Shown here piece by piece: positions 20,001-55,322 of a stretch of DNA of 64,000 bases. Source of the DNA: a virus. Every line of letters starts with the position of its first letter. Position 1 is the first letter of the stretch. The stretch lies in the IMG/VR virus record IMGVR_UViG_3300040815_002027; one strand, 5' to 3'. The position numbers and the translations under genes are program-made. The notes beneath the pieces are model-generated. The model was given only the letters and a program-made list of their open reading frames with translations. It had not been told where the DNA came from and ran no database searches.

Positions 20001-20717
20001 ATGAAAACAGTAGTTCTTGGAGATATACACGGTTTAGGTGTATGGGAGTTAATAGTAGCTAAAGAATCTCCTGATAGAGTTATTTTCTTAGGGGACTATT
20101 TCGACTCTACAGAAGTAAGTACTTCTCAGCAAATAAATAACTACAATAAAATAGTAGAGTTTAAAAAAAGTGGCGGAGCAGACATAATAATGCTAGTAGG
20201 AAATCACGACTTTCATTATCTTCCTTACATAGACACAGACGATATAAGTGGTTTTCAGAGTCACAGTGAAGATGTGTTAAAGGAACTTGTAGGAAGTACT
20301 TTAAACAATCTTACAATGTGCTATAAACAAGGTAACTACTTATTCACACATGCAGGAGTTTCAGATAATTTCTTACTAAAAGCACAAATAAATTATAGTA
20401 GAGACACAATAGATTCTTCTATTAATACTTTATTTTTGAGTAATCCTCATATATTTGATTTTGATGAAGATTGTGAAGATGCTTCTGGAGATAATAAGGA
20501 GCAGTCCTGTATATGGATACGTCCTAGAAGTCTTATGAATAATTCTCATACTATAAAAAAAGACTATATTCAAATTGTAGGGCATACTACACAAAAGAGA
20601 GTAGATGTAAAAGGAGTAGCTACAGATGGGAGGTTCTATTTTTTAGATACTTTAAGAACTTCTGGACAGTACGGTATTATTGAGTTTAACAATATTACTT
20701 TTAACTCGTATAAATAA
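20001..20717 (+). CDS. Calcineurin-like metallophosphoesterase
   Basis: GDIHG, GDYFD, GNHD, THAG, GHT. Confidence 0.9.
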   Translation: MKTVVLGDIHGLGVWELIVAKESPDRVIFLGDYFDSTEVSTSQQINNYNKIVEFKKSGGADIIMLVGNHDFHYLPYIDTDDISGFQSHSEDVLKELVGSTLNNLTMCYKQGNYLFTHAGVSDNFLLKAQINYSRDTIDSSINTLFLSNPHIFDFDEDCEDASGDNKEQSCIWIRPRSLMNNSHTIKKDYIQIVGHTTQKRVDVKGVATDGRFYFLDTLRTSGQYGIIEFNNITFNSYK

Positions 20718-20723
20718 TAGGTT

Positions 20724-22010
20724 ATGAACTACTATAAGATAAAAAGAAAACAAGTAAAGCGTGATGCTGAAGAATCTTATTACTACGGCACTTCTATAGT
20801 ATATAGGATGTATCCTAATAAGAAGCAGGAGGAGTGGTTAACTGAGATAGGCAACAAATGTCGGGGAGCTTATAACAAACTGGTAGAAGAGTTCTGCCAA
20901 AATCCAGATAAACCCAGGAACTTACCTGGAACTTCTTTAAAGGAGATTAATAGGCTTAGACATTATTTAAAAGAGTTTGACTGGTTAGATGATGTTCCTT
21001 CTATATTTTTGTATAATGTTTGTAATAATTTTATTAAAGGAGTTGATAACTTTTATACTCAAATTAAAAAGAATAAAAAGATATTAGAGAAAGATCCTTA
21101 TGCTACAGTTAGAAAAACAAGTCCCCCTAAAAAGAAAAAGTCTTATAGAGACCTGCATTTTGGGTCTAATAACTCAACTATAGAAAGAAGCACTGCTATT
21201 GACTATGACAACAATAGATATTATTGTTTTACGAAAACATTAAAAAGATTAGGTATTAGTGATTCTTTTAAGATAAAATGTCACAAGAAGTTTTATAATA
21301 GCAAAATAAAAAGAGTTTCTTTTATGAGGGACAGTTCTATGTGTTGGTATGTGTCTTTTGGTTTGGAGCTTCCGCAAATAGATAGGTATGATAAAATTTA
21401 TGTACCTAAAGATAATAGTTTAGGTATAGACTTGGGTGTAAAAACCGCAGCTACTACTTCTGATGGGGTAAAATTTCACCCTCCAGTAGAGCAGATAAAA
21501 AAGTTGGAGAAGAAGATAGATGTTTTAAATAAAGTTATTAGCAGGAAACAAAGATTAGATAAAAAGAATTACTGGAAGAGTAATAACTATAGTAGGGTGT
21601 TGGAGAAGAAGTACAGAATACAGAAAAAGATAAATAACATAAGAGCTAATTATAACGAGTATGTATCTCATGTTCTTACCAAAGGAGAGTATAATAAGAT
21701 TCAGATGGAAGATCTTAAGTTAAATTTTATGGTAGAAAAAAGGAAGAAGAAGTTTGGTATGAGTAGATCGGCAACTCGTTTAGGTTTGGGAAGTTTAACT
21801 AATAAGATAAAATCTAAATCTCAGGTAAGAGGTATAGAGTTTAATAAAATAAATCCTGCAAACACAACTAAGTATTGTAGTAATTGTGGACATATAGAGA
21901 ACAGTTTAACTCTTAATACAAGAGAGTGGACGTGTCCTAGATGTGGTGTTGACCACGATAGAGATATAAATGCTGCAAAAAATATTCAAAAAAGTTTGGA
22001 TATTAGATAA
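20724..22010 (+). CDS. tnpB: CRISPR-associated TnpB/Cas12f-like RNA-guided nuclease (428 aa)
   Basis: YRMYPNKKQ N-terminus; RuvC-I GIDLG, RuvC-II MEDL, Zn finger CSNCG/CPRCG, RuvC-III DRDINAAKNI; adjacent array. Confidence 0.92.
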   Translation: MNYYKIKRKQVKRDAEESYYYGTSIVYRMYPNKKQEEWLTEIGNKCRGAYNKLVEEFCQNPDKPRNLPGTSLKEINRLRHYLKEFDWLDDVPSIFLYNVCNNFIKGVDNFYTQIKKNKKILEKDPYATVRKTSPPKKKKSYRDLHFGSNNSTIERSTAIDYDNNRYYCFTKTLKRLGISDSFKIKCHKKFYNSKIKRVSFMRDSSMCWYVSFGLELPQIDRYDKIYVPKDNSLGIDLGVKTAATTSDGVKFHPPVEQIKKLEKKIDVLNKVISRKQRLDKKNYWKSNNYSRVLEKKYRIQKKINNIRANYNEYVSHVLTKGEYNKIQMEDLKLNFMVEKRKKKFGMSRSATRLGLGSLTNKIKSKSQVRGIEFNKINPANTTKYCSNCGHIENSLTLNTREWTCPRCGVDHDRDINAAKNIQKSLDIR

Positions 22011-22026
22011 AAGGTTTGTAGATTTA
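21995..22026 (+). promoter_or_regulatory. Bacteroidota-type promoter for the tracrRNA/array
   Basis: TTTG (21995) - 20 nt - TAGATTTA (22019), one mismatch to TAnnTTTG. Confidence 0.5.
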
Positions 22027-22029
22027 CGA

Positions 22030-22245
22030 TCTAAGTAAGTTCATTGAAATAATCGCCCGTGTGTAGCGGGTTTAAAGGCTTGCAGATATAGCGTCAACCC
22101 CTTCTTTGCTACGCAAGTGGTAAAGTCGCTCAAAATCTTTCTTTAAAATGAAAGCGAGAGGCCGAGAGGACGCTAGGCGGCTAATGTCGAAAGACATAAC
22201 GTGTGAGAACACACGAAATATCTTTTAAATTGTAGCCTTTGTATA
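22030..22245 (+). ncRNA. omegaRNA-derived tracrRNA-like scaffold with 3' anti-repeat
   Basis: Stems CCCG/CGGG (22056-70), TAGCGTC/GACGCTA (22089-95/22169-75), ATGTC-GAAA-GACAT (22184-97), CGTGTG/CACACG (22200-15); 22216-35 is 17/20 identical to the repeat reverse complement. Confidence 0.75.
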
Positions 22246-22250
22246 GTTAG

Positions 22251-22921
22251 GGTGTATACCACCACAATTTGAAAGGTGTTTACAACTAATGTTAGACAAA
22301 AAAATAAGTATAGCTTGGTATATAGCACCACAGTTTGAAAGGTATTTACAACGGAAACTTAGGTTACCTACTATCTGCTGAAGGTGTATACCACCACAGT
22401 TTGAAAGGTATTTACAACGAAAACTTAGGTTACCTACTATCTGCTGAAGGTGTATACCACCACATTTTGAAAGGTATTTACAACCAAATGAAGAACGATG
22501 CACAATAAGATGTAGGTGTATAGCACCACAATTTGAAAGGTGTTTACAACAGATCTAAAAGAAGAAGCAGAAAAACTTTCAGTGTATACCACCACAATTT
22601 GAAAGGTATTTACAACTAGTACCTATAGTATCAAAGTTAAATCAGAGGTGTATACCACCACAGTTTGAAAGGTATTTACAACTTATGTTATGAAGGTAGT
22701 ACTCCTTATATTGGTGTATACCACCACAATTTGAAAGGTATTTACAAACGGTGTCTCTTTAGCATCATAATTTTAAAACTGTTTACAACATAGCGACATC
22801 AATGTCGTTACCATAGATGGCTGTATACCACCACAATTTTAAAACTGTTTACAACATAGCGACATCAATGTCGTTACCATAGATGGCTGTATACCACCAC
22901 AATTTTAAAACTGTTTACAAC
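22251..22921 (+). CRISPR. CRISPR array: 11 repeats of 36 bp (consensus GGTGTATACCACCACAATTTGAAAGGTATTTACAAC), nine 30-bp spacers
   Basis: Repeats start at 22251, 22317, 22383, 22449, 22515, 22581, 22647, 22713, 22754 (degenerate), 22820, 22886; 66-bp period except a 5-bp gap at 22749-53. Confidence 0.96.
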
Positions 22922-22938
22922 ATTAAAAAATCAAAGTT

Positions 22939-23334
22939 ATGAAAAGAATTAGTTTAGTTTTAGTATTACTGTTATCAGCATATCTTGGGTATTCACAAAA
23001 AGGCCAGGATATTGTCTCTTTAGAAGAGATCTTAGAAACTATAAACACTGGCTTGGAAGATCAAGCCTTTGAAAAATTACGGCAAGAAGCACACTCCAAA
23101 GAAGATAACGTTATCTTTAATGTAAAGTATCTATATCCTAATGTATGTTACAGACAACTAATAACTAAAGCAACAGGACAGAAGCTTTATATACAGGTAG
23201 CTTGTGATGCTATACACGCTAAGAATGGTCTTACTTTTAAAGAAGAAGAGGCGTATGAAAGATACCAGTTTCTTATAAAGAACAAACGTAAATTTGATAG
23301 ATTAGATAGAAGAATAGAAAGAATGCACAATTAA
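22939..23334 (+). CDS. Exported hypothetical protein
   Basis: Signal-peptide-like MKRISLVLVLLLSAYLGYS. Confidence 0.6.
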   Translation: MKRISLVLVLLLSAYLGYSQKGQDIVSLEEILETINTGLEDQAFEKLRQEAHSKEDNVIFNVKYLYPNVCYRQLITKATGQKLYIQVACDAIHAKNGLTFKEEEAYERYQFLIKNKRKFDRLDRRIERMHN

Positions 23335-25705: not shown

Positions 25706-26248
25706 ATGAAAGATTCGAGAAAGCTTTTAGCAACCATTGCAAAGGGATATTTGAGTGAAGAATTAAATCATAATATAGATGGGATAATAGCATATCATAG
25801 AAGCCCCAAAAAATTTTATGATTTTAAATTGTCAAATGTTAGTTCTGACAGTAATAGACAGAGATATGGGTGGGGGTTATATTTTTCAAACAGTATTCCA
25901 AATACGCAATATGGTGATTATTTATATCAAGTAAGTCTTTTTAAAAATAAGAAACAGTATGTTTTAATTGATTTAAAACAACCAGTTGAAGGACTTATAG
26001 TTAATAGGATTGTAGAAGCACTTAATCATTATAACAAAAAATCTGATGAAGTTGTTGAGTTTGCTTATAATGGATTTTTGTTTTATAAAACGTTATCAAG
26101 AATTTTAGGTGGTGATAAAAACGCATCTTTGTTTTTATCTAAAAATGGTATAGATGGGTTACTAAATAAAATAACTAAAAATTGGCACGATTATATATTA
26201 TTCAATGACGATAATATAATAATTGATGAGATTAAATATGACCCATAA
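25706..26248 (+). CDS. ADP-ribosyltransferase-like (PolyVal-type) domain with MKDSRK leader
   Basis: AYHRSP..F, YGWGLYFS, GIDG. Confidence 0.55.
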   Translation: MKDSRKLLATIAKGYLSEELNHNIDGIIAYHRSPKKFYDFKLSNVSSDSNRQRYGWGLYFSNSIPNTQYGDYLYQVSLFKNKKQYVLIDLKQPVEGLIVNRIVEALNHYNKKSDEVVEFAYNGFLFYKTLSRILGGDKNASLFLSKNGIDGLLNKITKNWHDYILFNDDNIIIDEIKYDP

Positions 26249-33419: not shown

Positions 33420-33550
33420 TTTTGTGTGGTGGAGAAAAAGTAAAACAAAAAGATTATAATCACGAAACTTAATACGAAGCACAAACGTAGCATTGCATAT
33501 AACTAATCGCTATCCGCATATTTATGGTGGATATACAACAAAAACAAATT

Positions 33551-34294
33551 ATGAAAACAGTTATATTAGGAGACATCCACGGAACAAATTATTGGCAAAC
33601 TATAATAAACTTCGAGAAACCTGATAGAGTTGTGTTCGTAGGAGATTATTTTGATTCTTTTGATATTCCTTACGATAAGCAGATAGATAACTTCCTGGAC
33701 CTCATAGAGTACAAGGAAAAAAGTGGGGGAGAAGTCATACTACTAATAGGTAACCACGACTATCATTATCTACCCTATATAAACGACACATATACATCAG
33801 GCTATCAATCTAAATATGCTCATTTAATAAAACAAGTAGTAGAAACTAACTTACACCATCTACAGATAGCCTATCAGTTTGATGACTTTCTAATAACACA
33901 TGCAGGAGTAAGTGAAGAGTTTATGGATAATAACTTTGATAAGTGGTCTGAGGAAACTATAGTAGAACATCTTAATGATTTATTTAAATATAAACCTAAT
34001 AAGTTTTTATTTAATGGTCTTGACCCTTATGGAGACGATACTTACCAGTCTCCTATATGGATAAGACCTAAAAGTCTTATGAGAGCAAACAAGACATCAG
34101 AACTAAAGAGAAGGTATGTTCAAGTAGTAGGGCATACTCAAGTAAAGGAAATTGATACGAAGGGAGGTGCTACGGGAGGAAGGTATTATTTTATCGACTG
34201 CTTATCTACGAGTGGGCAGTATATGATCGTAGATGAAGATTCGTTTATTAATTTTAAAAGTTATAGAGATTATGATAAAGAAGATACTGAGTAA
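33551..34294 (+). CDS. Metallophosphoesterase (paralog of 20001..20717)
   Basis: GDIHG, GDYFD, GNHD, THAG, GHT; shared KG.AT.GR.YF.D. Confidence 0.9.
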   Translation: MKTVILGDIHGTNYWQTIINFEKPDRVVFVGDYFDSFDIPYDKQIDNFLDLIEYKEKSGGEVILLIGNHDYHYLPYINDTYTSGYQSKYAHLIKQVVETNLHHLQIAYQFDDFLITHAGVSEEFMDNNFDKWSEETIVEHLNDLFKYKPNKFLFNGLDPYGDDTYQSPIWIRPKSLMRANKTSELKRRYVQVVGHTQVKEIDTKGGATGGRYYFIDCLSTSGQYMIVDEDSFINFKSYRDYDKEDTE

Positions 34295-35552: not shown

Positions 35553-37212
35553 TACTCATGCTTTTTTTATACGTGGGAGGCTAGTCCTCCTACTTTTTAA
35601 ATTTAAATTATGATTAATACGTTACAATACTATTCTGAAAAATCTAAGTTTTTAGTATTCAAATACCATAGAGTAATTTTTGATGATCTACTTTTTAAAG
35701 GCTGGTCTGCGCATAATAATTATAGAGAGGTTTTATCTTTATACATCTATCTTATGAATGTTTACTTTAGAGTCCCTTTAAACTTATTAGCATCTACTCT
35801 TCCGATTGAGGAGTGTAGGTGTAAACTATATCTGGATAGTATTAAGATTTCATATATAACTAAAATATCTGAAAAATTAGACAATTATTCTGAACAGTAT
35901 GATATAACTTTAGCTAAGTTGTTTAAGTAGCCCAAACAAACTCTTCGCATCTTAGTTTGTTTTTAAATGTTTTTTTGTGAAAGGGTGAGGTAAAGTTCTC
36001 ACCCTATTTAGAATCCAAAAAAGTTGCCGAGAAGCCCTAATGAAAAATATACATACACTACAACTACATAATAAACTAATAATAGATAATAACACTTCAG
36101 TACTAAAAGTACCCAATGGACTAATATATACTATAAAGACAATAGAAACTATAACTAATACTAAAGATAATTCTAAATACACTATAACAAATACTAATAT
36201 AGTGTATGTACCTTATACTAATAACACTGATACTATAACAAATAAGGATACAGATAATAAACCTAACCCAGATATAGATCTACCAGATAGTCAATACACT
36301 ATAATATAACTTTATTATGTTTATCAAACTAAAATGATTGTTAAATTAAATACATACACTATAACTAATAGGTTATTTTATAGTATATATACACTATAAT
36401 ATATAACTACAAAGTATACGTTAGTCTTTCGTTTTTACAGGCTTCTCACTTAGGTGGGAGGCCTTTTTATTTATAACCCTAAAGGGTGGAGGTGGGAAGG
36501 ATTACAAAACGCATTCTAAAGGTTTACAAAATGTTTATCAAACTGGGGTGTCAAATTGGGGAGGTAGGTGCATATTTGCCCTGTCTTTTTCTCGACCCTC
36601 CATTTTTTTCCTACCAAATTTTATTTGGCCTGGGCTGGCCATCCTTCCTGGTTGATCTTCACCTGCCTGGTGGGTGGAGGACCTGGTCTGGTAGGAAATG
36701 CTTATAAGGGTCTACCTCATATCTATTTGTTTTGCGTGTTTGGTCAACCAGGGTCTGGTTGGAATAACTTATTTTTGAAAAAAGTTGGGAAAATATTTGG
36801 AGATGTGGGTGAGGTTATATTATCTTTGTGGAACTTTAAGCAAGGGGGGAGTCCTTCCTCCCGTTTCCATGTTTTAAGTTTTAGTTGATTAATGATTTTG
36901 GGGCCTCCTCTTTAACTAGGGGAGGCTTTCTTTTTATAACTCCAGAAGCTTATAAGGATGTTTCTGTATACTGGATTGTTTGCGTGTTTGACCAACCAGG
37001 CCTGGCAGGCTGGTAAGTTTGGTGTGAAGTTAGTAGGCGGCTTGGATCCTTAAGTTCAGTATAAAGTTAAACTACCTATTATATAAGGTGTAGTATACTA
37101 TATACACTATATACTATAAAGTTATTTTTTTTTAAAAAAGTTGCAGCGAGGTATTGTGTAATTAAAAACTTACTTATATATTTGCGACATCGTTAATCAC
37201 TAAAATAGAAAT

Positions 37213-40200
37213 ATGATGAAAAAGATCAGGGTAACAAATGAAGAACTATTCTACGGTAAGAATGTAGAAGTATTTACTGAGAACTTAAATGTAGGTACTA
37301 TTAGAGGTAGGTTTATTGGTACTGGACATTTACGCATTGTATGGGATGGGGACTCTATGGTAAGTTCTGGTGAGTTTGGGAGGGATGATTTTGAGGAGGA
37401 CTTTGGGTTTGTGTTTGAGGTGGAGAAAAATCCTAAAGAGGAGCAGTACTTTATACTGAGGGATATCCAGAGGTCTGGGTATAATGTAGTAACGTGTGGA
37501 GATTGTGGCACGGTTAATCTTGTTAGGTTTTCTGATGGAGACTTTTACAAGTGCCATAAATGTGGGTTTGATGATGACAGTAGTTCTTTTCCAGATTTAT
37601 TTTATTAATTAATTTAAAACTTAAATATTATGACAAAGACAAAGATGTGTTCATTGGTAAAGTTAAACAACCTTATCTACAACTTTACCAAAGTTATTCC
37701 TTCCCTAAAGGAGCAGTACCTTCACTTTCATTATGATATATCTACGGATACAATATCTCTATTAGAGATTAATGGTGGAAAGCCTATGGAGGGAGATGAT
37801 ATGTCTATAAGGTTTTCTGAGGAGGGTGATTTGTATGAGATTACTGTAACTGGGGATAAGTCCTTTTGTAATACGGTAGGTGATGTATTAAATCATATAG
37901 AGAATTGGTTTGCATAATAACTTGTTTTATATCTGGAATTGGTGATGAACCTCTCCCCAACTTTTGGTGGAGGGGTTTTTTTATGCTTATAAGGATCTAC
38001 CTTATATCTATTTGTTTTGCGTGTTTGCCCAACCAGGGAAGGTCTGGCCTGGTTAGTTTACTTTGAAGTTATTATAGAGCTGGTTAGTTTACTATAAACT
38101 TATTATATGTAGATCTACTTTAAAGTTATTTTTTTTGAAAAAAGTTGGGGTGAGGTATTGCGTAATTAAAAACTTACCTATATATTTGCAACATCATTAA
38201 TCATTAAAACAAAAAATTATGAAAGCTTTTGTAGTATTAATCCTAGTTGAAGGTTCATTAGTAGAGCCAAGAAAGACTTGTGAATTCCTTGAAGGAACTA
38301 AATTTGATATCGGAGGTTCAGTTCAAGCCACATCTACTGACGTATTGAACAAGGTTCTGTTTGAATTAGGTCTAAATGATTCTGATGGCATAGGAGTGCT
38401 TTCAATTTCAGACTTTATGGACAGGTTTAATGACCAAGAATTAAACCCAGATGACTACTTTATGTCTTATGTGTATGCTTAGTATTGTGTAATTAAAAAC
38501 TTTCCCCTATATTTGCAATCATTAATTAACTTTAAACTAAACAATATGGAAAACTTACAAATGATAAATATGTTAGACTTTCTGTTTGATATGTTAGAGC
38601 ATTACCCAGACTTCCCAAATTATTCAGAAGCAAAACAGTTATCTGTTCTTACAAAGCATATAAACTATCAAGATGGTCATACTAAATTAAATTTACAGTA
38701 TGATTATATAGGAGAAGCATCAGATGATTACTATAAAGTTATATTTGATATGAGTGATTTTGGTGAGGTATTTAAGTATGCAGATGAAGAGGTTTTATCT
38801 GAAATAAAAAGTAGTGAAGAGTTTAAGAGTAATAATAAGTATTTTATGTTTAATGGTAAAGGTATAGTATCTAATGATGATATTACTGTGTTAGGTTTTG
38901 ACTCTAAAAAGATTGCACAGTACATATTAGAAGAGTATCATAATTTTATATGTTAGCATAGTTTCGGATAGTATGTTTGAGCCTCTCCGCCAGATTTTGG
39001 TTGGAGGGGTTTTTTTATGCTTATAAGGATCTACCTTATACCTATCTGTTTTGCGTGTTTGCCCAACAGAGCTGGCTGATCTGTAAGTTTACTTTGAAGT
39101 TATTATATGTACTGGGTAGTTTACTGTAAACTTATTATATATAGGTTTAATAAAAAGTTATTTTTTTTTCAAAAAAGTTTGCGGAGAAGAAATAAAAAAC
39201 TATATTTGCAGAACATTAATCATTAAAACATAACAAACATGAACAATTACGATTTCTTTTTATTCACAAAACTAGTGGATGTAAGATTCCCCAACAATAA
39301 GGATTCTTACGATGAGTTGTACGATACCTTATCTATGGCTTATAACTCTTTTCTATCAAGTAAGTATAACGACTTTGATAAAGGAGTTTATGAGTGTATA
39401 GAAGAATACTTGGAAGATGAGGACTTACCATTCAGACAATGTACAAAGACTGGTAGTTACATTGTAGAGGGGTATATGGTCAATCACAATTTAATGTCGT
39501 ACGGAGATATCGAATACTATGCTTCAGAAGAAGATTTAGTAGAAAGATTGAAGGAAACTTATCCTGAAATTTCAGATAAGGAAGAACTACTGGCTACTGC
39601 CTATGAAGATGAGTATTACTGTTGGACACAATTTAATAATTAACTTTAAACTAAAACTATTATGGAAGATTTCAAATTAATCAATGTACTGGAACTGGCT
39701 TCTGAACTAGCAGATATGAAAGTTAGAGAAATTATGGTAAACTTTTCAGATATTTACATTGAAGATAGTGATGGAAGTACAAGGTATACTGAAGAGGCTC
39801 AAGACCTATTTAACGAGTGGTACGATTCCTACACTGAACTAATACAATCTATTTAACTTTAAACTAAAACTATTATGGACAAATTACTTAAATCTGAAAT
39901 TGACAAAGCAAAAAAACTTTTAAAAGACAATGGCTACCAAACGTATAACTTGTGGCACATTGACGATGTATTGGATGAAGAAGGGCTTTTAGAGGATGGC
40001 GATAAGATGGAGATACTGGAAGAAGCACTCACAAATGAATGGGTTATAGAACAAATTTTTTTTATTATAAACGACATTAGAGATAGGTATATTGAAGAAG
40101 TTAAAAACAAAAAAGCATGAGAAGGAAGTATTTAAATAGAGTAACAGAAAGTGATTTTATAAACTGGTACTTTAGCGATTCAGAAGACTTGACCGAATTT

Positions 40201-40368
40201 GCAAAAGGTATTATTGATGAACTGGCAGAGACTGGTAAATGTAACTTGACTGTAAAGAAAGTATTTGATAACTGTGGGTATATACCCTCACACATTTGCG
40301 AGTCTAAACTGGATGGGGAAGAATACCAACCGCACGAAGTTAGACTGGTAAAAGATATTTCTAATTAA
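37213..40368 (+). CDS. Small acidic early-type hypothetical genes (37213 with Zn ribbon, 37630, 38219, 38546, 39239, 39662, 39875, 40117)
   Basis: Each unit preceded by a TATATTTG promoter; CGDCG/CHKCG in 37213. Confidence 0.65.
39178..39208 (+). promoter_or_regulatory. Bacteroidota sigma-A promoter (near-identical copies at 40638, 41607, 42664, 43697)
   Basis: TTTG-N19-TATATTTG matches the -33/-7 consensus. Confidence 0.85.
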
Positions 40369-40702
40369 AAGTAAAAAAGTTAGGGGAGAGTGTATAATAA
40401 TTAAAAACTTTCCCCTATATTTGCAGAACATTAATTAACCATAAAAACTTAAAGTTATGAAAGTAGCAAGACCCAAGACAGAAAAATGGCATAATGACCA
40501 AGAAGGTGATTGCAGAAAACCTATTGATAGAGATGGAAGTAAAAAATCATATTATAAAAAAGGATGGTGGAAAAGATATGATAGAAAGAAGTTTTTCCGC
40601 AATATTAACAAGTGGTTTGGATAATTACCGCTAAAAGTTTGCGGAGAAGAAATAAAAAACTATATTTGCAGAACATTAATTAACAACTAAAAATTTAAAA
40701 CT

Positions 40703-41362
40703 ATGCCAAACTGGTGTTCAAATTACGTAACGATTTACGGAGAAGATTTCTCCAAAGTAAAAGATTTACTTTTAACTAAAACTGATGATGATGGTCTTTT
40801 CGAGCATACTGTAGGTATTGTAAAGGAAGGCTATTTAAGAGATGAAAAGTATAAAAATTTAGGAGAGGTTATGCTTGATAACAAATACTTTAACTGGTAC
40901 GACCACAACATAAACGAGTATGGTACAAAGTGGGATGTTAATGAGATTTCATTTGATGTTTTTGCCGACCCATCTGATGAGCATATTTCCTTTAGTTTTG
41001 AGTCCGCTTGGTCTCCTCCTTTAGAATGGGCAAGAAAACTGTCAGATAAGTTTAAAGTAATTGTGGTAATAGAGTATGCTGAAAATGGTTGTGATTTTGG
41101 AGGTAGGTCAATATTTGAGAATGGAGATGAAAAGGAATTTGCACAATACACATACCTTAACTGGATGTTAGTTGATGATACGAGTGGAACTAGGTTTATG
41201 GAGGAAATAGAGTACATAACATCTCATATGGACAAAGATGAGTTTGAAGAGTATAAGCAGGATATTATAGAGTCTGCTGAAGAACAGTTAGACTCTACTT
41301 TTGTAAAGACTGTTGTGGATGTATTTGATGAAATAGAAAAGAGTATGTTTGAAGAATCTTAA
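40703..41362 (+). CDS. DUF1281/YubB ferredoxin-like domain protein
   Basis: MPNWCSN; WYD..I..YGTKWD; FESAWSPP; Y.E.G.DF.G. Confidence 0.8.
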   Translation: MPNWCSNYVTIYGEDFSKVKDLLLTKTDDDGLFEHTVGIVKEGYLRDEKYKNLGEVMLDNKYFNWYDHNINEYGTKWDVNEISFDVFADPSDEHISFSFESAWSPPLEWARKLSDKFKVIVVIEYAENGCDFGGRSIFENGDEKEFAQYTYLNWMLVDDTSGTRFMEEIEYITSHMDKDEFEEYKQDIIESAEEQLDSTFVKTVVDVFDEIEKSMFEES

Positions 41363-41670
41363 TAGTAATAGGTTATGTTTTAGAGTGCCTCTCCCCCGCT
41401 TTTGGAGGAGGGGTTTTTTTGTGCTTATAAGGATGATCCGATATACCTACTAGTTTGCGTGTTGTGTGAACTGGTTGAACGTATTTGTAAGTTTATTTTA
41501 AAGTTATTGTACATACTATATGTTTACTTTTAAGTTATTATATGTATTATATGTTTACTGTAAAGTTATTCTGTTTACTTTTAATTTATTTTTTTTTGTA
41601 GAAAAGTTTGCGGAGAAGAAACAAAAAACTATATTTGCAGAACATTAATCAACATTAAAAACTTAAAGTT

Positions 41671-42391
41671 ATGGAAACTTACAAAAAGATTGGTAATTAC
41701 ACATTCAAGTTAACATCAAAATACAATATTGGTGATGAAATTTTTTATCAGAATATGAAATGGAGTTATAAAGATGAGAAAAATATCATTACAAAAGAAA
41801 AGGCAAAAATAGTTGATATGTATGATTATGGTAATAAAAATTGGGGAACACTAAATGTTAGAGTTATACCTGAAAGAAAAGAATTGTGGGATAAGGATGG
41901 TGGTAGGTGGATTAGTGAAAATGATATTATTTCAAAGGTGGGTGGGTAAAAATTATTGCACATAACTATTTGTTAACCCAAGTTTAAACTTAATACCAAT
42001 GAAACTAACATTCAGTATTTTAATTATCTTTATATCTTTAACTGTACATTCACAGTCCAGAAGATTCACTTTAGATAAAAGTAATTTAGCAACAGTACAA
42101 AGTAACAATATTAATCAACCAACAAAACAATCTACTATGAAGTTATTCATCGCAATCGAAGAAGGAAGGAACCTACGTTCCAGATTCATTACAAGCTTGG
42201 AAATTATTGCTAGAAATGAAATTGAAGCTAGAAAAATTATCAGAGAGTATAATCGTTATGTATTTGATAATAAGTTAAAAGTAAAAGAATTGAACAGACC
42301 TATCATTTGTGAAGTAACTATGACTGGTGCATTTGAACACCATAAGAACTCTACTAGAGGGTTTTATAACCCTACTACAGAAGTACAGTAA
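41671..42391 (+). CDS. Two hypothetical genes (41671..41949, 41999..42391)
   Basis: First ends at a cassette boundary site at 41963. Confidence 0.55.
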
Positions 42392-42512
42392 AGATATATT
42401 CACTCACTCTGTATAAAGGTGCTACATTAATTTGTAGTGCCTTTTTTTATGCTTATAAGGATGATCCTTTATACCTATTAGTTTGCGTGTTTGATGAAGT
42501 GACCAGTCAGTA

Positions 42513-42636
42513 TATATGTTTATTGTAAAGTTATTCTGTATACTATATGTTTACTTTTAAGTTATTCTGTATACTATATGTTTACTTTTAAGTTATTCTG
42601 TATACTATATGTTTACTTTTAAGTTATTCTGTATAC
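42513..42636 (+). repeat. Four tandem 31-bp repeats TATATGTTTACTTTTAAGTTATTCTGTATAC
   Basis: Copies at 42513, 42544, 42575, 42606; related arrays near 38055, 39085, 41490, 43570, 44450. Confidence 0.9.
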
Positions 42637-42725
42637 TTTTAAGTTATTTTTTTTGCAGAAAAGTTTGCGGTGATGAAATAAAAAACTATATTTGCAGAAC
42701 ATTAATCATTCTAAAACAACACAAT

Positions 42726-43448
42726 ATGAAAAGTTTAACGTTTTTATCAGCCAATCAAAAAGTTGTAAATGTCATTGCATTAAATAAAACTAAAAATGGC
42801 AAAATAACTACACCGAATAAATTAATACTACAAACCTATCACTTTGATATTGAGCAAATAAATTTTGCCAAACAAGGTGGTAAAGGTATTAATTTAGATA
42901 CTGGATTTCTTAATCCTAAATTAACTGAAAATAATTGTTTGAGCTGTCCTTTAAGATTTGGCGGTTGTTATACACATCACGGTATCCAGCCTGTAGGCCA
43001 TTTATCTATGTTACGTAGATTGGCTAAATTAGATAAAATACCTCAATATTCTGTTGATACCATTAACCAATCTTTAGCAATGTTACAATTAACTACAAAT
43101 AAATACATTAGGTTTGGCAGTTATGGGTGTCCAACAAATTTACCCTTTAATTTGGTACAATTATTAGCCGAAAATGCTAATAACTATACGGGATATACGC
43201 ATGAATGGCACAATCCTAAAAACTACAAATATATGGCTTATTTTATGGCTTCTACTCACCAAAGTGACCCTATATTCAGTAGCAAATTAGCCAATGATTT
43301 GGGTTTTAGAACATTTGAGATAGACGGAAAAGTTAATACCGTCCAATGTCCACATTCAACCAACAAAGATATTAAATGTGACAAATGTGGTTTATGTAGC
43401 GGATATAAAGGTAAAGGAAAAACAAATATAGGTATCCCAAAACACTAG
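42726..43448 (+). CDS. Cys-rich phage protein (gp88-like, possible Fe-S)
   Basis: CLSCPL..GCY, IRFGSYG.P, TGYTHEW, FMAST, CP...CDKCGLC. Confidence 0.6.
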   Translation: MKSLTFLSANQKVVNVIALNKTKNGKITTPNKLILQTYHFDIEQINFAKQGGKGINLDTGFLNPKLTENNCLSCPLRFGGCYTHHGIQPVGHLSMLRRLAKLDKIPQYSVDTINQSLAMLQLTTNKYIRFGSYGCPTNLPFNLVQLLAENANNYTGYTHEWHNPKNYKYMAYFMASTHQSDPIFSSKLANDLGFRTFEIDGKVNTVQCPHSTNKDIKCDKCGLCSGYKGKGKTNIGIPKH

Positions 43449-45075
43449 GTTTAGATTGATTAATTAGTTTAACGGCCTGGCAATAAGTTAGGCCGTTTTT
43501 TTTATGCTTATAAGGATGATCCTTTATACCTATTTATTTGCGTGTTTGATTAATTACTAATTAGTGTTTATGTTTACTTTTAAGTTATTATACACACTAT
43601 ATGTTTATTGTAAAGTTATTCTATATAGTATATGTTTACTTTTAAGTTATTCTATATAGTATATGTTTACTTTTAAGTTATTTTTTTCTAGAAAATTTTG
43701 CGGTGATGAAATAAAAAACTATATTTGCAAAAGATTAATTAACAATTAAAACTTATTAAAATGAGGAATTTAAAATTGCACGAAATTATTGAAAGGTCTG
43801 AATCGCTTGTGGAAATTAGCTATAAAGACGTTGCACCAAAAGTAAAACAATTAAAAACTTACTACGGTACTAAAGTTTTCTTTTTGGCTACATTTGTTAG
43901 CAATGCTATTCAAGGTGGTATTGTTGTCCCAATAGATTATATAAATGAAGCAATAGATGAAATAGCACTACTACATTCAGAAGATAATGAGGAATTTGAA
44001 TATTTAAAAGAATTATACAGTCACCAAACAGTATTATTATAATTAATTAACAATTAAAACTTATTATTATGCCGTACTCAATTGAAGATACTATGGAAAT
44101 TTACCTGTTAAATAATGAAACAGGCGAAGAATGTACTTTTAAAGTAGATTTCAACTATTACTATGACGAAGGTAGATATCACAGTGCGTGGGAAGATAGT
44201 TATCCTGCTGAAGAATGTCTGGAAGTTACATGGGTTGAAAATGAAGAAAATTTGCCCGACTGGGTAACTGAGGAAATGATATATAATGAGGTGGAAAATA
44301 ACTTACACTGTTATTAATATCATAGAAAAATAGTGTTAAAATAGGGTAACATTAATTTGTTATCCTATTTTTTTTCTTATAAGGAAGACCTAATATGCGT
44401 ACTTGTTTGCGTGTTTGACCAATTGACTGGTTGACTGGATCTATTTTTATATGTTTACTTTAAAGTTATTCTGTATACTATATGTTTACTTTAAAGTTAT
44501 TCTGTATACTATATGTTTACTTTTAACTTATTATTACTATCAAAATAACTTTTTAGTAAAAAAAATTAACTTGATATTGAAATAAAAACTATCTTTGTAT
44601 CGTATTAATTAATAACTAAAACAACACAACATGGAATTTTTAAAAGAATTCGAATTGCAAGGATTTACTTACCACCTAGTTTTACACTGCGAAAAAACAT
44701 ACTTTTTTTTCGCTGGACTATTTTTTGAGGCTAACGGTTTTGAGTCTCAAATAACCGTTGAAAATTACATTTTATCATTATTAAATTAATTAACTATGCT
44801 AAACTTAATCAAGCTCGTATTTTTGGTTTTAATTGGTATTGCATTATTGTATATTGATGCGGTTATAAAAATACCACAATTAAAACTTATTGCATCATTT
44901 CCTTTTATGACAGTGGGAATATATCTAATTATCCTATTCCTTTTCCCTAAATTGGAAAAGCGGATAATTGGCTAACTTTTTTTTAATTGGGTGAAAATTT
45001 TTTCATCCAATTATTCTTTATTTCAAATTTATTTATATCTTTGCTATCATTTTAAACTTTAAAAATTTTCAAAAC

Positions 45076-45864
45076 ATGGAAAAAGTAATTTCAAAAGACG
45101 AATTAATTAAGATTTGTCCAGCAGTAATTTCAAAGCAATCACCATCAGTTAAAAGCCGTTATGTTCATATTAACACTATGGACGTTATTGAGCAAGTATT
45201 AAACAGTGGCAATTGGGATATTACCAAAGCAATTGGTAAGGACCAATACGGTTACCATCAAGTTATCTTGACTCAAAACGATAGTTTTGAGAACACTGAC
45301 AAATTAGGAAAATTGTTTCCTCAAATTAAAGTAATTTCGTCTCATGACGGTACAACAAAATTTCAGATGCTTATGGGTATTTTTAGACTCATTTGTGATA
45401 ACGGTTTAGTTGCACCGATGAAAAATACTTCAGAAGCAAATACCGTAAAACATATTGGCATAGACACTGATTATGTTAACGGGGTAATCGAAAATACTTT
45501 ATCTAACGGTTACGGTATTATTGGGAAAATTTCTAAAATGAGGAACACTGATATTTTTGAGGATGCAAAAATAGACCTTATTAACACCGCACTATTGACT
45601 AAAGGTAGGGTACATGAAAATGAGGCTAGTAACTTTATTTCAAAGTTAAATACCGAAACCTACAAATCTATTTGTGAAATAAATAGACCACAGGATGCGG
45701 GAAATAATATTTGGAATGTTTTTAATACCGTTCAAGAAAATGTGCTACGTGGTAATTATACGGTTTACGGGGAAAAGAATAGAAAGGCTAGACCTGTTAC
45801 TGATTTTCGACTAAACGACCGTATTAATACAGCTATGTTTGAAAAGGTATTAGAACTAGTATAA
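45076..45864 (+). CDS. DUF932/DUF945 family protein
   Basis: RYVHINT, SSHDGT..FQ..GIFRLICDNGL, WNVFNTVQEN. Confidence 0.85.
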   Translation: MEKVISKDELIKICPAVISKQSPSVKSRYVHINTMDVIEQVLNSGNWDITKAIGKDQYGYHQVILTQNDSFENTDKLGKLFPQIKVISSHDGTTKFQMLMGIFRLICDNGLVAPMKNTSEANTVKHIGIDTDYVNGVIENTLSNGYGIIGKISKMRNTDIFEDAKIDLINTALLTKGRVHENEASNFISKLNTETYKSICEINRPQDAGNNIWNVFNTVQENVLRGNYTVYGEKNRKARPVTDFRLNDRINTAMFEKVLELV

Positions 45865-45888
45865 CATTAAAATAGTCTAGCATTAAGA

Positions 45889-45921
45889 TAGGGTAACATT
45901 AATTTGTTACCCTATTTTTTT
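45889..45921 (+). terminator. Intrinsic terminator with ACATTAATTTGT core (related copies near 42417, 44341, 46635)
   Basis: TAGGGTAACATTAATTTGTTACCCTA plus T-run; stems covary between copies. Confidence 0.8.
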
Positions 45922-46148
45922 ATCTTATAAGGACGGTATAATATGTATATTTATTTGCGTGTTTGACCTATTTTAAAGCGGTTTTTTTAGACGTTTTTTT
46001 GTTGACTGGGATTGTTCCCTATTGAGTAAAAAAAAGTCCTGAAATTAGCCTTAAAATAGCCTTGTAAAAAAAATGAAAAAAAATTAACTTGATATTGAAA
46101 TAAAAACTATCTTTGTGGAAATTAATTTTTTAACTAAACTTAACTATC

Positions 46149-46616
46149 ATGAAAAATTTAAAAGAACTTTTAGATTATTTGCACAAATTAATCGTACTGG
46201 AAAACCGCTCAAATGTCGGCTTTGTATGGATAGGGAAAACGTCCATTGCTAACTTAAATAAGTTAGGCAAAGAACTTTATCCTGAGGGAATAACTAAGGT
46301 GCAAAAGACTAAGGCTAATATTGCTAATAAAATTAGCCGTCATTTTGATAAAGTTAATGAGCCGTTAAAAGGTATTGGTACATGGGGAAAAAGGATACAT
46401 GCTGGACGTGTTGACCACAAAGAAGCAAGTTATATTGAAGTTTTCAGTGCGAAAAATGAGTATCAATATTTTTGCAATGCTACGGGCAATGAATTAAATT
46501 TTGCTGAAATTAAGCAATACCTATCTTTAAGACAGCCAACAGCACATAAATATAGACGTTTTAAATTGGATGCAAATGTAGATTTTGTTTCCTTTGCAGG
46601 AAAGCGATTTAAATAG
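46149..46616 (+). CDS. Hypothetical early protein
   Basis: Own TATCTTTG promoter element and terminator. Confidence 0.6.
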   Translation: MKNLKELLDYLHKLIVLENRSNVGFVWIGKTSIANLNKLGKELYPEGITKVQKTKANIANKISRHFDKVNEPLKGIGTWGKRIHAGRVDHKEASYIEVFSAKNEYQYFCNATGNELNFAEIKQYLSLRQPTAHKYRRFKLDANVDFVSFAGKRFK

Positions 46617-47915: not shown

Positions 47916-48565
47916 TAAAACTAAAAGACATACTTTTAGAGGTTAGTAAGGTGTTTTATCACGGCACTCCAGATTCCAGGCAGATATCAAAACAAGCTGG
48001 TTTTGAAAGAAAGACAAAAACTATAAACTATATAGAGGATTTGGATAGATACAAAGAATTACAAAGACAGCTTAAGGATACAGACTATGCTAATATAGGA
48101 CAGATAGGTAAAGAGATAAAGTCTTTAGAAAAAAAACATACTTTTAGATCTCCTATATTTTTAACAGATACTCTTTCAGTTGCAAAGACATATAGTAAGA
48201 AGCCTGCCTGGGGTAGTCAGAATAGTACCCCTAAAGTGTATAAGGTAAAGACCAGTCCTTCAAAGATATTAACCTTAGATATAAAAGGTAAGAGGTTTGA
48301 TTTTTTAGATGTAGGTTTAGTTGCAGGTGCGTTTAAAAGTGCGGGAGAAGATACTAACACCTTCCATAATTTATTACAAAAGTATGAGTACTATCAGTTA
48401 GGTAACATAGAAGGAGTACCTACAGACTCTTTAGTGGCTATTGCAGACGAGTTAGGCTTTGACTGTATTGATGTTTTAAATGCAGAGGATAGTTATAATG
48501 TAGGAAACAAATTATCAACAATAAGAATTATGTTGGAACCAAACGATATAAATATTATAAGATGA
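47912..48565 (+). CDS. ART-PolyVal-like protein with MIKLKDILLE leader
   Basis: FYHGT, IFLTD..VAKTY, GFDCI. Confidence 0.6.
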   Translation: MIKLKDILLEVSKVFYHGTPDSRQISKQAGFERKTKTINYIEDLDRYKELQRQLKDTDYANIGQIGKEIKSLEKKHTFRSPIFLTDTLSVAKTYSKKPAWGSQNSTPKVYKVKTSPSKILTLDIKGKRFDFLDVGLVAGAFKSAGEDTNTFHNLLQKYEYYQLGNIEGVPTDSLVAIADELGFDCIDVLNAEDSYNVGNKLSTIRIMLEPNDINIIR

Positions 48566-52935: not shown

Positions 52936-54255
52936 AGAAGAAATGTCTCCACAAGAGAAAAAGATGGAGATGTTAAAAAAACATTACAAGTCTTTACCTC
53001 TTCCTAAAGTAAGAGATATACAGGCGCAGTTAAAAAGAAAGTCTAAAAGATACCAGGACTTAGGTACAAAAGTTCCTAAAGATGTCACGTCTTTACAAAG
53101 AACATTAACTTATATTATCAGAGCAAAAGAAGCAGAAGCTATAGAAAAAGGTGCGGTGAAGGAAAGCATTGATTATGGGGTTTTAAAGGATCTAATAACA
53201 AGTAGGATAAAGGTAAAGCCTTTAAAAAAAGTAAAACAGTCTATTTTTCCAAATGCTATAGATGTTTGGAAGTTATCAGAAAATATTTACTTAAAGACTA
53301 CAGACGATAATAACCTAGTATTATTTAGTATGTCTGCTGATGATAATTTAAAACTTAAGTACAAAGAGTTGAAAAAAATTGGCGGAGATGAAGATCTCTC
53401 TAACTTTTTAAATTTAGCAAAAAGAAAAAAAGTATGAAACAAAACACTTTTTACAAATTATATGATAAGTTAATATTAGAAACTATAAGCATCCTATCAG
53501 AATCTCAGTTAGACCAATTAAAGGCAACTTTTGTTGGGGAAGGAGAATTAGACAAACCTGTTAAGATAGGAGGCAAAAAAGAGAAAGGCAAAAAAATGTC
53601 GGAAGATGTTTGGAATAAAATCTCTAATTTAACTGTATCTCGTGCTAATAAGGATAATACCAAATTAAAAGATTTACCTCAATATTTTATCTGGTTGTTA
53701 AAAATGGTAGCAGCAGAAAAACTCCCAAAGGAAGATATAGACCAATTTGGAGATTCCAGTTTTGGAAAAGGTCTTATATCCAGGTTTATTAGTAAAAAGA
53801 TAGCAAAGTATCTAAAACAAAGAGATATAACAAAGTATAGTAATATAGAGGATTTAAGAACTGACGTAGCTGATGCAGAAGACCAATTACCCTACGAGTA
53901 TGAACAAGGAGAAAATTTAGTGCCTAAAGAAGGTATAGATGAGTTAAAACAAGTTGGAGTAGACCTTATAGGTACTGTTGCAGGATATCAATGCTTTAAA
54001 GTATCTCAAGGAAATGATAGTGAAGAGACTTTTAAAGTATATACTAAATATTTGGCAAAATGTGCAAGTGGGGATATCACTTTAGATATTTGTACTATGA
54101 GAAATTATGATAGTTTTAAAAAGTACATAAAAAATGAAGATTATTATATATTCTTTAACACTAATGATAAAAAAGCACCTTACCAGTTTGGATACGGTAG
54201 TCAGCAGTTTCACGATGTAGGAAATAGAAGTGTCATTGCCGCTGATTATGAATAA
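52925..54255 (+). CDS. Two hypothetical proteins (52925..53437, 53434..54255)
   Basis: Coupled ORFs; no firm motif. Confidence 0.55.
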
Positions 54256-54266
54256 AGTATAGGATA

Positions 54267-54881
54267 ATGAAAAAACACATATTACAATTTTTTAAATTTT
54301 TAAAAGATAAGGAAGGTAAATCAGCTCCCTTAAAACTCAAGCTCTTAGACCCACAAACTTTTGGTAAACCCACAAAAAATCAGTTAAATGTAAAAGGTGA
54401 CTTAAATTTAAGTAAGACAAATATAAAGGAACTACCTCAAGGACTACAGGTGAGTGGGGATTTAGATTTAAGCGGTTGCACATCTCTTACAAAACTTCTA
54501 CAAGGACTACAGGTGGGTGGGAGTTTAGATTTACAAGGCTGTACTTCTCTAAAAGAACTACCTCAAGACCTTAAGGTGGGTGACGGTATAAATTTAATGG
54601 ATTGCACATCTCTTAAAGAATTACCACAAGACCTTTATGTGGGTGAAGATTTAGATTTAGAAGGTTGCACATCGCTTAAAGAACTCCCACAAGGACTACA
54701 GGTGGGTTGGAGTTTAAATTTAATGGATTGCACATCTTTAAAAGAACTTCCACAAGGTCTTAAGGTGATTGATAATTTATGGTTAGTAAACACACCTATA
54801 GCAGATAAATACTCAAAAGAAGAGATAAAAAAGATGATAGAAGATGGGGGAGGATTTGTTGAAGGTGAAATTAATGTATAA
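54267..54881 (+). CDS. LRR protein, 22-aa repeats
   Basis: (GCTSLKELPQGLQVGxxLxL)n, 66-bp DNA period. Confidence 0.85.
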   Translation: MKKHILQFFKFLKDKEGKSAPLKLKLLDPQTFGKPTKNQLNVKGDLNLSKTNIKELPQGLQVSGDLDLSGCTSLTKLLQGLQVGGSLDLQGCTSLKELPQDLKVGDGINLMDCTSLKELPQDLYVGEDLDLEGCTSLKELPQGLQVGWSLNLMDCTSLKELPQGLKVIDNLWLVNTPIADKYSKEEIKKMIEDGGGFVEGEINV

Positions 54882-55306
54882 TGAAAAAACACATAGCACA
54901 ATTCTTTAAATTTTTAGAGGATAAGGAAGGTAAGCCTGCTCCGTTAAGACTCAAGCTCTTAGATCCTCAAACATGGGGTAAACCTACGAAGGAAGATTTA
55001 AACGTTAAAGGTGATTTAGATTTATCAGAAACAAACATAAAAGAGCTTCCACAAGGACTTAAGGTAGATAAGAATTTATGGCTAGATGGTTGTACATCGC
55101 TTGAAAAACTACCCCAAGGTCTTAAGGTGGGGTGGCTTTTAGATTTAACAGATTGCACCTCCCTTGAAAAACTACCCCAAGGACTTGAGGTGGGTATGGG
55201 TTTAAATTTAACAAACACACCCATAGCACAAAAATACTCAAAAGAAGAAATACGAAAAATGATCGAGCGTGGAGGTAAATCTGTTAAAGGTCAAATTATT
55301 ATATAA
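54881..55306 (+). CDS. LRR protein, shorter paralog
   Basis: Same N- and C-caps, three fewer repeats. Confidence 0.85.
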   Translation: MKKHIAQFFKFLEDKEGKPAPLRLKLLDPQTWGKPTKEDLNVKGDLDLSETNIKELPQGLKVDKNLWLDGCTSLEKLPQGLKVGWLLDLTDCTSLEKLPQGLEVGMGLNLTNTPIAQKYSKEEIRKMIERGGKSVKGQIII

Positions 55307-55322
55307 TGGAAAAACACAAATT

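Follow-up and report, generated by a model that had tools for sequence, protein, structure and literature searches.

An array-linked TnpB-family nuclease with its own scaffold RNA in a large estuarine phage, a probable minimal type V-like effector of the TranC/V-U type

The window analysed here, which is the whole 64,000-nt stretch taken from the IMG/VR virus record IMGVR_UViG_3300040815_002027, carries a gene for a TnpB-family nuclease that is followed directly by a structured RNA and a CRISPR array. As judged from sequence comparison, the nuclease is very probably a domesticated, immobile TnpB that acts in Bacteroidota phages as a minimal type V-like effector, akin to the TranC and V-U-type systems. 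The parts of this reading with direct support are the intact RuvC triad, the conserved and folded scaffold RNA, the pairing between anti-repeat and repeat, the linkage to arrays throughout the clade and the turnover of spacers. The source record is linear and viral, 85.5 kb long and about 47% complete, and occurs in estuary metagenomes. It comes from a large estuarine phage, the host of which probably belongs to the Bacteroidota.

The assignment of the predicted protein to the TnpB family is supported by 194.5 bits against the NCBIfam model guided_TnpB (cut-off 100), by Pfam HTH, OrfB and TNB matches and by the HTH/WED-REC-RuvC-zinc finger architecture. In agreement with the original prediction, which was made from the sequence alone, both the RuvC D/E/D triad (D236/E329/D414) and the zinc finger (C385/C388/C404/C407, residues 385-407) are complete. 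These residues are invariant among 14 clade members, and they align with D191/E278/D361 and the CCCC finger of ISDra2 TnpB (residues from PMC10097598). The closest fold matches were ISFba1 TnpB and ISDra2 TnpB, and the AlphaFold model was of moderate quality (pLDDT, or predicted local distance difference test, 74; predicted template modelling score, pTM, 0.50; C-terminus poor). The ratio of nonsynonymous to synonymous substitution rates (dN/dS) of 0.13-0.27 corresponds to purifying selection on the gene.

The homolog search returned 13 proteins with 40-95% identity (E 1e-72 or better), with ordinary TnpBs next at about 1e-31, and one further core member and one next relative (P0122) came from a profile search across 1.84 billion representatives. 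The sister lineage formed by L089 and P0122 shows about 33% identity to the clade and has the same RNA layout, a longer array and the same repeat; core and sister stand on one branch (SH-aLRT, an approximate likelihood ratio test, 98 in a quick tree). The layout is constant, with the same non-coding RNA directly past the stop codon and then repeats with a TTTGAAAGGT..ACAAC core. Scaffold RNA and a related array were present for all 13 distinct clade and sister proteins with enough downstream DNA, whereas the repeat core was present at 0 of 149 non-clade TnpB loci, 76 of which had an IS605-like right-end motif. Close homologs are therefore not ordinary insertion sequence (IS) elements located away from arrays. 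The clade comprises about 15 natural proteins of 397-428 aa and is apparently small and phage-borne: locus L009 lies on a 117-kb IMG/VR contig, and the other contigs are short and either phage-like in appearance or too gene-poor to judge.

The proposal that the gene starts 6 nt after a phosphoesterase gene and is accompanied neither by tnpA or an IS left end nor by adaptation genes was borne out within the limits of the incomplete record. The nuclease ATG lies 6 nt past the preceding stop codon, which leaves no room for an IS left end. Searches for a Y1 tnpA, a serine recombinase or resolvase and cas1 found none in the 85.5-kb record, and cas1 was likewise not found in records G000 and G001, both of which are incomplete. 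The nuclease is present in one copy per record and occupies an unchanged site in phages with effectors of 95% and 59% identity to it, with comparably diverged neighbours (flanking genes 48-79% identical at an effector identity of 59%). The retention of one site while the gene and its neighbours diverged points to a domesticated gene and not to a mobile one. An ordinary IS200/IS605 or IS607 element was rejected, as no Y1 transposase or resolvase was found in the incomplete record, the array replaces the right end, and relatives share the insertion site with a single copy per record. Beyond the two nearest phages, the clade loci have different neighbour genes, and a search for an empty site by means of the phosphoesterase gave no result. 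At loci L003-L008, an ART-PolyVal-like gene is variably present 4-5 kb upstream.

The RNA between the gene and the array, about 200 nt long, had been described as structured, and comparison upholds this. The fold of the window sequence alone gave z = -2.7. Across 12 scaffolds, 99.7% of the cells of the named structure are paired and 16 of 29 pairs show compensatory changes, including the core repeat:anti-repeat helix across the clade; none of 500 shuffles scored as high, and slid controls were paired in 32-48%. In the window, TTT of the repeat faces AAA of the anti-repeat, and in other loci GTC of the repeat faces GAC. A TAnnTTTG element, which we take to be a promoter from the Bacteroidota consensus, closely follows the stop codon; it is perfect in 12 of 14 loci and imperfect in the window and in L177; the AGTTCwTTGAmAT element behind it is presumably a boxA-like antiterminator (Table 1). 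Because both elements come after the stop codon, a transcript separate from that of the gene is suggested for the scaffold RNA. Contigs from two RNA libraries (22056-22384 and 22066-22305) span the scaffold, R1 and S1, which is a weak hint of transcription as DNA carry-over is possible. The scaffold occurs in one copy per genome; in an nhmmer search its profile picked up no copy standing alone, and the sister RNA was matched only at E 0.08. The invariant GUGU loop of stem 1 is complementary to the end of the repeat, itself invariant, with Watson-Crick pairs at positions -5 to -3 and G opposite -2A, so that a pseudoknot between the loop and the repeat end may be inferred. The omegaRNA pseudoknot of ISDra2 has the same geometry, with Watson-Crick pairs at -5 to -3 and a -2A:G contact (PMC10097598).

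At every clade locus the anti-repeat is joined in cis to the first repeat, R1. Since the terminal anti-repeat of the scaffold pairs with the 3' half of R1, the scaffold, R1 and S1 together form a predicted natural single guide of about 170-235 nt across the clade. The link is graded: at one extreme the window has a full repeat with an 18-bp anti-repeat, and at the other L177, L172, L174 and L089 have a short hairpin and half a repeat. The reduction of R1 to a short omegaRNA-like hairpin, with an anti-repeat core of about 6-8 nt, is seen in these four loci and in L176.

The array (22251-22921) has a 66-nt period composed of a 36-nt repeat and a 30-nt spacer. The 11 repeat copies that had been counted are present, but the canonical form is limited to R1-R8. 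R9, 5 nt past R8, is half-degenerate, and R9-R11, with their variant core, reach duplex energies with the anti-repeat of -4 to -6 kcal/mol versus about -18 kcal/mol for the canonical repeats; they are probably the old, non-functional end of the array. Since a single base separates S2 from S3 and S9 is identical to S10, there are seven distinct full spacers. The A/G variants among R1-R8 leave the pairing with the anti-repeat intact, and the terminal repeat, with no spacer behind it, is without its 3' half in L003, L009, L169, L171 and L172; for these reasons the array appears to fit type V polarity, in which the spacer follows the repeat. Spacers turn over between near-identical strains: loci whose effectors are 98% identical (L009 versus P0009/L175) have zero spacers in common, and different spacers stand at both array ends in a related strain from a seawater run of 2024 (X13). 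The sequence shared by S9 and S10 (22790-22819 and 22856-22885) forms a hairpin. Just past the last repeat, window positions 22917-22941 resemble the 3' end of promoter cassettes found at 36600-46200, and on the X13 contig a cassette-type promoter stands where the array would precede position 22922, which may be an empty site or a further copy of the downstream start region.

The repeat is a member of a Bacteroidota family. Two tandem copies of the repeat core were found in 19 stretches among 185,579 genomes scanned, all from this phylum, with cas13b as neighbour in five cases and a type III-A operon and a Cas12f-like gene in one case each. The clade repeats are identical to the Cas13b-adjacent repeats at 22-32 of 36 positions, with the same orientation and the same 66-nt period, and many of them retain a GTTG..CAAC hairpin. 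As the 3' half of the repeat served to build the search pattern, the likeness there is partly by construction; in the 5' half, which lies outside the pattern, up to 14 of 17 bases match. In all four viral stretches found, from three records, a TnpB- or Cas12f-like gene lies directly before the array. The proteins of these stretches have only 26-28% identity to the clade nuclease of the window, and the two that were placed in the tree (L197 and L199) fall outside the clade. The same 36/30 format accompanies no fewer than three unrelated lineages of TnpB-like phage proteins (25-30% identity). Because the repeat also adjoins Cas13b, type III-A, Cas12f-like genes and unrelated phage TnpBs, its sharing points to array capture or common host adaptation, and the simplest reading is that phage nucleases several times adopted a repeat format of the host lineage, one that host adaptation enzymes serve. 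An origin specifically from type VI-B was rejected, as the family also adjoins III-A and Cas12f-like genes. In F. columnare, the II-C Cas1 acquires spacers in trans into a VI-B array that has no cas1 (PMC8092290). Concerning the host, a Shine-Dalgarno-like motif precedes 3 of 93 phage genes versus a background of 10.8%, and positions -12/-11 are A-rich; the translation signals thus resemble those of Bacteroidota and, together with the confinement of the repeat to this phylum among the genomes scanned, make a host from it probable. ThyX gave no host identification.

Several loci of the same repeat family deserve mention in their own right. Phage TnpB-like genes precede arrays at L197 (9180-10908, minus strand, 418 aa) and L231 (G004:C1:2166-4309, minus strand, 436 aa); the proteins are 25-30% identical to the clade and to each other, the intervening RNAs differ, and the two loci are probably independent TnpB-CRISPR associations. 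Cas12f/V-U3-like genes with such arrays were found at L199 (11954-14036) and in L200, a 362-kb complete phage, with no cas1 in the phage, as well as at L185 (2230-5336) in a Flavobacteriales metagenome-assembled genome (MAG); the proteins have 509 aa (L199/L200) and 603 aa (L185), and promoter-like and boxA-like elements also follow the stop codon in L199. A type III-A operon in a Flavobacteriales MAG (L190:16-6359) has the same 36-nt repeat family, and in a Kordia MAG (L189:459-3561) the array lies behind an 837-aa open reading frame with no NCBIfam match and a weak CARF match.

These features can be combined into a proposed mechanism. A single transcript would begin just past the gene and run through the scaffold, R1, S1 and the array. 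The scaffold and R1 would fold like a TnpB omegaRNA, with the anti-repeat bound to the 3' half of the repeat, and the last bases of the repeat (ACAA of ACAAC) would form the pseudoknot with the GUGU loop, which would make S1 a ready single guide. The spacers S2-S7 may be used through tracrRNA-like pairing of the anti-repeat in trans with the downstream repeats. The ribonucleoprotein would then cleave double-stranded DNA with a match to roughly the first 16-20 nt of the spacer, beside a 5' target- or protospacer-adjacent motif (TAM/PAM), the likely targets being rival phages or other mobile DNA, and new spacers could be supplied by a host Cas1-Cas2 that accepts the Bacteroidota 36/30-nt repeat format.

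Several findings weigh against this mechanism. No credible protospacer was found for any of the approximately 45 clade spacers, and without protospacers no PAM could be inferred. Exact searches of IMG/VR at 18-20 nt, from which S1 and S9 were left out, gave zero matches for S2/S3, S4, S6 and S7. For S5, an exact match of 20 nt lies in a huge gene of a 95.6-kb phage and a 30/33 match in Bacteroides phage DAC16 (E 0.02); these were not counted as protospacers, as they lie within the chance expectation of 0.1-0.3 (a rough figure, with collection sizes assumed and coding bias ignored) and their two flanks have no clear common motif. The arrays of L089 and L009 had only chance-level matches in INPHARED, and the clade spacers had none in the 2.5 Mb of DNA gathered in the analysis. 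Some arrays are static, since the P0010 lineage carries the same four spacers in six samples (L003-L008) and the arrays at several loci (L172, L176) are degenerate. The pseudoknot receives no support from covariation because its columns never vary, the contigs from RNA libraries give neither strand nor transcript ends, and adaptation genes may sit elsewhere in the phage, given the incompleteness of the record. As for the claim of a TnpB-to-Cas12 intermediate used in inter-phage competition, an immobile nuclease of TnpB size with an intact triad was confirmed, but the competition was not, because no credible protospacer was found; by analogy with the phage-borne CauTranC9 it is plausible.

Four alternatives have to be weighed. 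The cis junction of anti-repeat and R1 at all loci, the hairpin-like R1 in the five loci named above, the single complete repeat of L169 and the single-copy scaffold would also suit a system in which only the fused guide scaffold-R1-S1 is used, with no tracrRNA:crRNA split and with the remaining array as a reservoir or a by-product of integration at R1. Such a restriction is unlikely, though far from negligible, as the 18-bp anti-repeat of the window pairs equally well with R2-R8, the repeat variants are pairing-neutral, and the downstream repeats retain their 3' core clade-wide while guide-less last repeats lose the 3' half. Much less can be said for a regulator or homing-type element that would bind DNA of the host or of the phage itself, or cleave sibling phages lacking the array at the cognate site. 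The failure to find a phage protospacer and the likeness of the sequence past R11 to the start regions of the phage's own gene cassettes would fit it, but the catalytic residues do not vary, the pairing of R9-R11 with the anti-repeat is poor, spacer turnover is seen between strains, and no spacer matches the phage's own record, so that we regard it as very improbable. The most improbable alternative is that the array is an orphan of VI-B type, kept for a host Cas13b or another host effector as a hijack or decoy, with the TnpB using its own omegaRNA only. The repeat identity to Cas13b-adjacent repeats, the shared orientation and period and the often retained hairpin speak for it; against it, covariation ties the repeat's 3' half to the anti-repeat in the TnpB scaffold, the repeat hairpin of the window is weak (-5.5 kcal/mol) with a drifted 5' end, and all viral repeat matches lie behind a TnpB- or Cas12f-like gene.

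The last alternative concerns the origin of the array, which may have arisen by serial duplication of the omegaRNA 3' end, with the likeness to VI-B, III-A and V-F repeats due to convergence or to a type V ancestor instead of capture from a host. De novo duplication is one of two routes described in PMC10691335, the construction of the search pattern accounts for part of the 3' likeness, and L051, the closest relative outside the clade, shows by eye some motifs like those of the scaffold and ends in GTTCAA. This origin is unlikely, though far from negligible, given that the 5' half also matches Cas13b-adjacent repeats and that the 36/30 format recurs beside the unrelated phage TnpB-like lineages, Cas12f-like genes, Cas13b and III-A, with all cellular matches in Bacteroidota. 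Returning to the domesticated effector as the preferred reading, a wider version of it can be offered tentatively, as something closer to an even chance than duplication but still short of it: phage TnpBs would repeatedly have become CRISPR effectors through one Bacteroidota repeat family, with the host Cas1-Cas2 exchanging the spacer of the single guide without RNA splitting or phage cas genes. In that case the ACAAC repeat end would replace the omegaRNA 3' end in the pseudoknot, the guide polarity would be flipped relative to Cas13b, and host integration at the scaffold-proximal repeat would give adaptive targeting.

Table 1. Positions of the nuclease locus and its parts in the window.
Feature	Position	Strand	Remarks
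Metallophosphoesterase (calcineurin-like) gene	20001..20717	+	Syntenic neighbour outside the system; found ahead of the nuclease in the nearest phages (L001 and L002) only
TnpB-family RNA-guided nuclease gene (predicted), 428 aa	20724..22010	+	NCBIfam, Pfam, invariant residues, ISDra2 alignment, dN/dS
Putative Bacteroidota-type promoter, -7 element TAnnTTTG	22011..22030	+	Directly past stop codon; window copy imperfect
AGTTCwTTGAmAT element, boxA-like antiterminator (inferred)	22038..22050	+	All 12 aligned loci and sister lineage
omegaRNA/tracrRNA-like scaffold	22053..22233	+	Covariation; RNA-library contigs (weak)
Scaffold P1	22055-22060/22066-22071	+	Invariant loop GUGU at 22061-22064
Scaffold P2	22078-22080/22179-22181	+	
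Scaffold P3	22089-22095/22169-22175	+	Encloses variable insert; helix evident by anchored comparison
Scaffold P4	22184-22188/22193-22197	+	
Scaffold P5	22200-22205/22210-22215	+	GAGAA loop
Anti-repeat	22216..22233	+	18-bp duplex with repeat positions 14-31; short loop to repeat 1; minimum free energy fold
Canonical repeats R1-R8 (36 nt, end ...TTTGAAAGGTATTTACAAC) with spacers S1-S7 (30 nt)	22251..22748	+	
S1, guide fused to scaffold	22287-22316	+	
Degenerate distal repeats R9-R11	22754..22921	+	Duplicated spacer S9=S10

Other features of the window lie outside the system. At 36600-46200, about nine repeated intergenic cassettes with a spacing of about 1 kb stand ahead of short genes; their parts are a hairpin resembling a terminator, a 57-nt block that is conserved, tandem repeats of 31 nt and a promoter-like element (TATATTTGC), and they look like early-gene or recombination cassettes. 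Two groups of genes (at 25706, 26377 and 32715, and at 48562, 57446 and 58506) have near-identical N-terminal leaders and upstream DNA, and the remainder of the proteins differs. Coding repeats with a 63-nt period and two larger duplicated blocks occupy 54250-55320, and a second metallophosphoesterase at 33524-34294 is 47% identical to the one upstream of the nuclease. In the window, Rfam gave no family at gathering score and the tRNA search found none.

The clade bears on the question whether type V arrays come from guide-RNA duplication or from capture of existing arrays, and makes it testable. On one homologous scaffold, its members grade from a full repeat with a long anti-repeat down to a minimal hairpin of omegaRNA type, and their repeat format recurs at host Cas13b, III-A and Cas12f-like loci and in no fewer than three unrelated phage TnpB lineages. 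In practical terms, it provides its natural nucleases, each compact and with a defined natural single guide, for PAM screens. The novelty of the system had been overstated, as TranC and V-U intermediates are published, including an active phage-borne one; because this kind of system is already known, the value of the locus lies in a well-resolved new lineage and a test of origin, and not in a new class.

Among known systems, the top sequence and structure matches of the nuclease are IS200/IS605 TnpBs (ISDra2; PDB 8h1j, 8exa), which have the same domain set, and the topology of the scaffold follows ISDra2 omegaRNA in its predicted stem-1 loop pseudoknot, stems 2 and 3 and terminal stem. Unlike these elements, it is apparently immobile, with no transposase found and no IS ends; unlike the ISDra2 RNA, its RNA starts past the stop codon and has its own putative promoter, two extra hairpins and an array behind. 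With Cas12f and Cas12n it shares a miniature RuvC effector and, by prediction, a tracrRNA-like RNA with repeat:anti-repeat and pseudoknot pairing. Membership of Cas12f (V-F) was rejected on NCBIfam scores (Cas12f2 45.8 versus a cut-off of 450, C2c8 64.1 versus 350 bits), and in the tree the nuclease groups among TnpBs, apart from the Cas12f-like L199 and L185. Cas12n (V-U4/V-N) has about 485-544 aa and an unstructured C-terminal tail, the coding region of which contains the tracrRNA (bioRxiv 10.64898/2026.03.27.714800). Unlike it, the nuclease ends 14 aa past D414 with no such tail and its RNA begins past the stop codon; PADLOC Cas12u4 gave only 110 bits, and membership was likewise rejected. 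To the VI-B arrays of Bacteroidota the locus is similar in repeat family, 36/30-nt geometry (36-nt GTTG...CAAC repeats, 30-nt spacers, in a family not exclusive to VI-B), orientation to the upstream gene and absence of cas1. The effector differs, as the gene preceding the array encodes a RuvC protein of the TnpB family; a whole-record search for Cas13b gave no match, but its control was also without signal. Cas13b uses the spacer 5' of the repeat, whereas the guide here would be the spacer 3' of it.

The nearest likeness is to the array-associated TnpBs. The V-U6 to V-U45 branches, 40 candidate Cas12 branches (Altae-Tran et al. 2023, PMC10691335, which names two routes of array origin, de novo duplication and insertion close to an array already present), are likewise immobilised TnpB clades tied to arrays without other cas genes, and about 50 independent TnpB-CRISPR associations have been inferred already. 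TranC are transposon-CRISPR intermediates (Jin et al., Cell 2025, PMID 41027434, as relayed in PMC13565253 and bioRxiv 10.64898/2026.03.27.714800), and on the description relayed there they share with the locus a TnpB-sized nuclease (300-600 aa) with an intact active site, an array, an anti-repeat between gene and array and no cas1/cas2 found. CauTranC9, which is phage-borne, active, ISDra2-like and about 414 aa long, has 38-bp repeats (bioRxiv 10.64898/2026.03.27.714800), unlike the 36-bp repeats of the window. LaTranC (PDB 9jfo/9jfq) matches the nuclease over the RuvC and zinc-finger parts only (E 5e-15), more weakly than ISDra2 TnpB. With a TnpB-like protein in this size range, arrays clade-wide (13/13 versus 0/149), no cas1 found in the incomplete records and an omegaRNA-derived scaffold whose anti-repeat pairs with the repeat in a covarying helix, the locus works like a TranC/V-U system (PMC10691335, PMC12669027, PMC13565253, bioRxiv 10.64898/2026.03.27.714800), being likened to them by described features and not by published clade lists. 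Systems of this kind have been known since 2023-2025; what distinguishes the present clade, also from TranC, is the clade-wide cis fusion of the scaffold to R1, with its graded forms, and a repeat format from the Bacteroidota family shared with VI-B and III-A.

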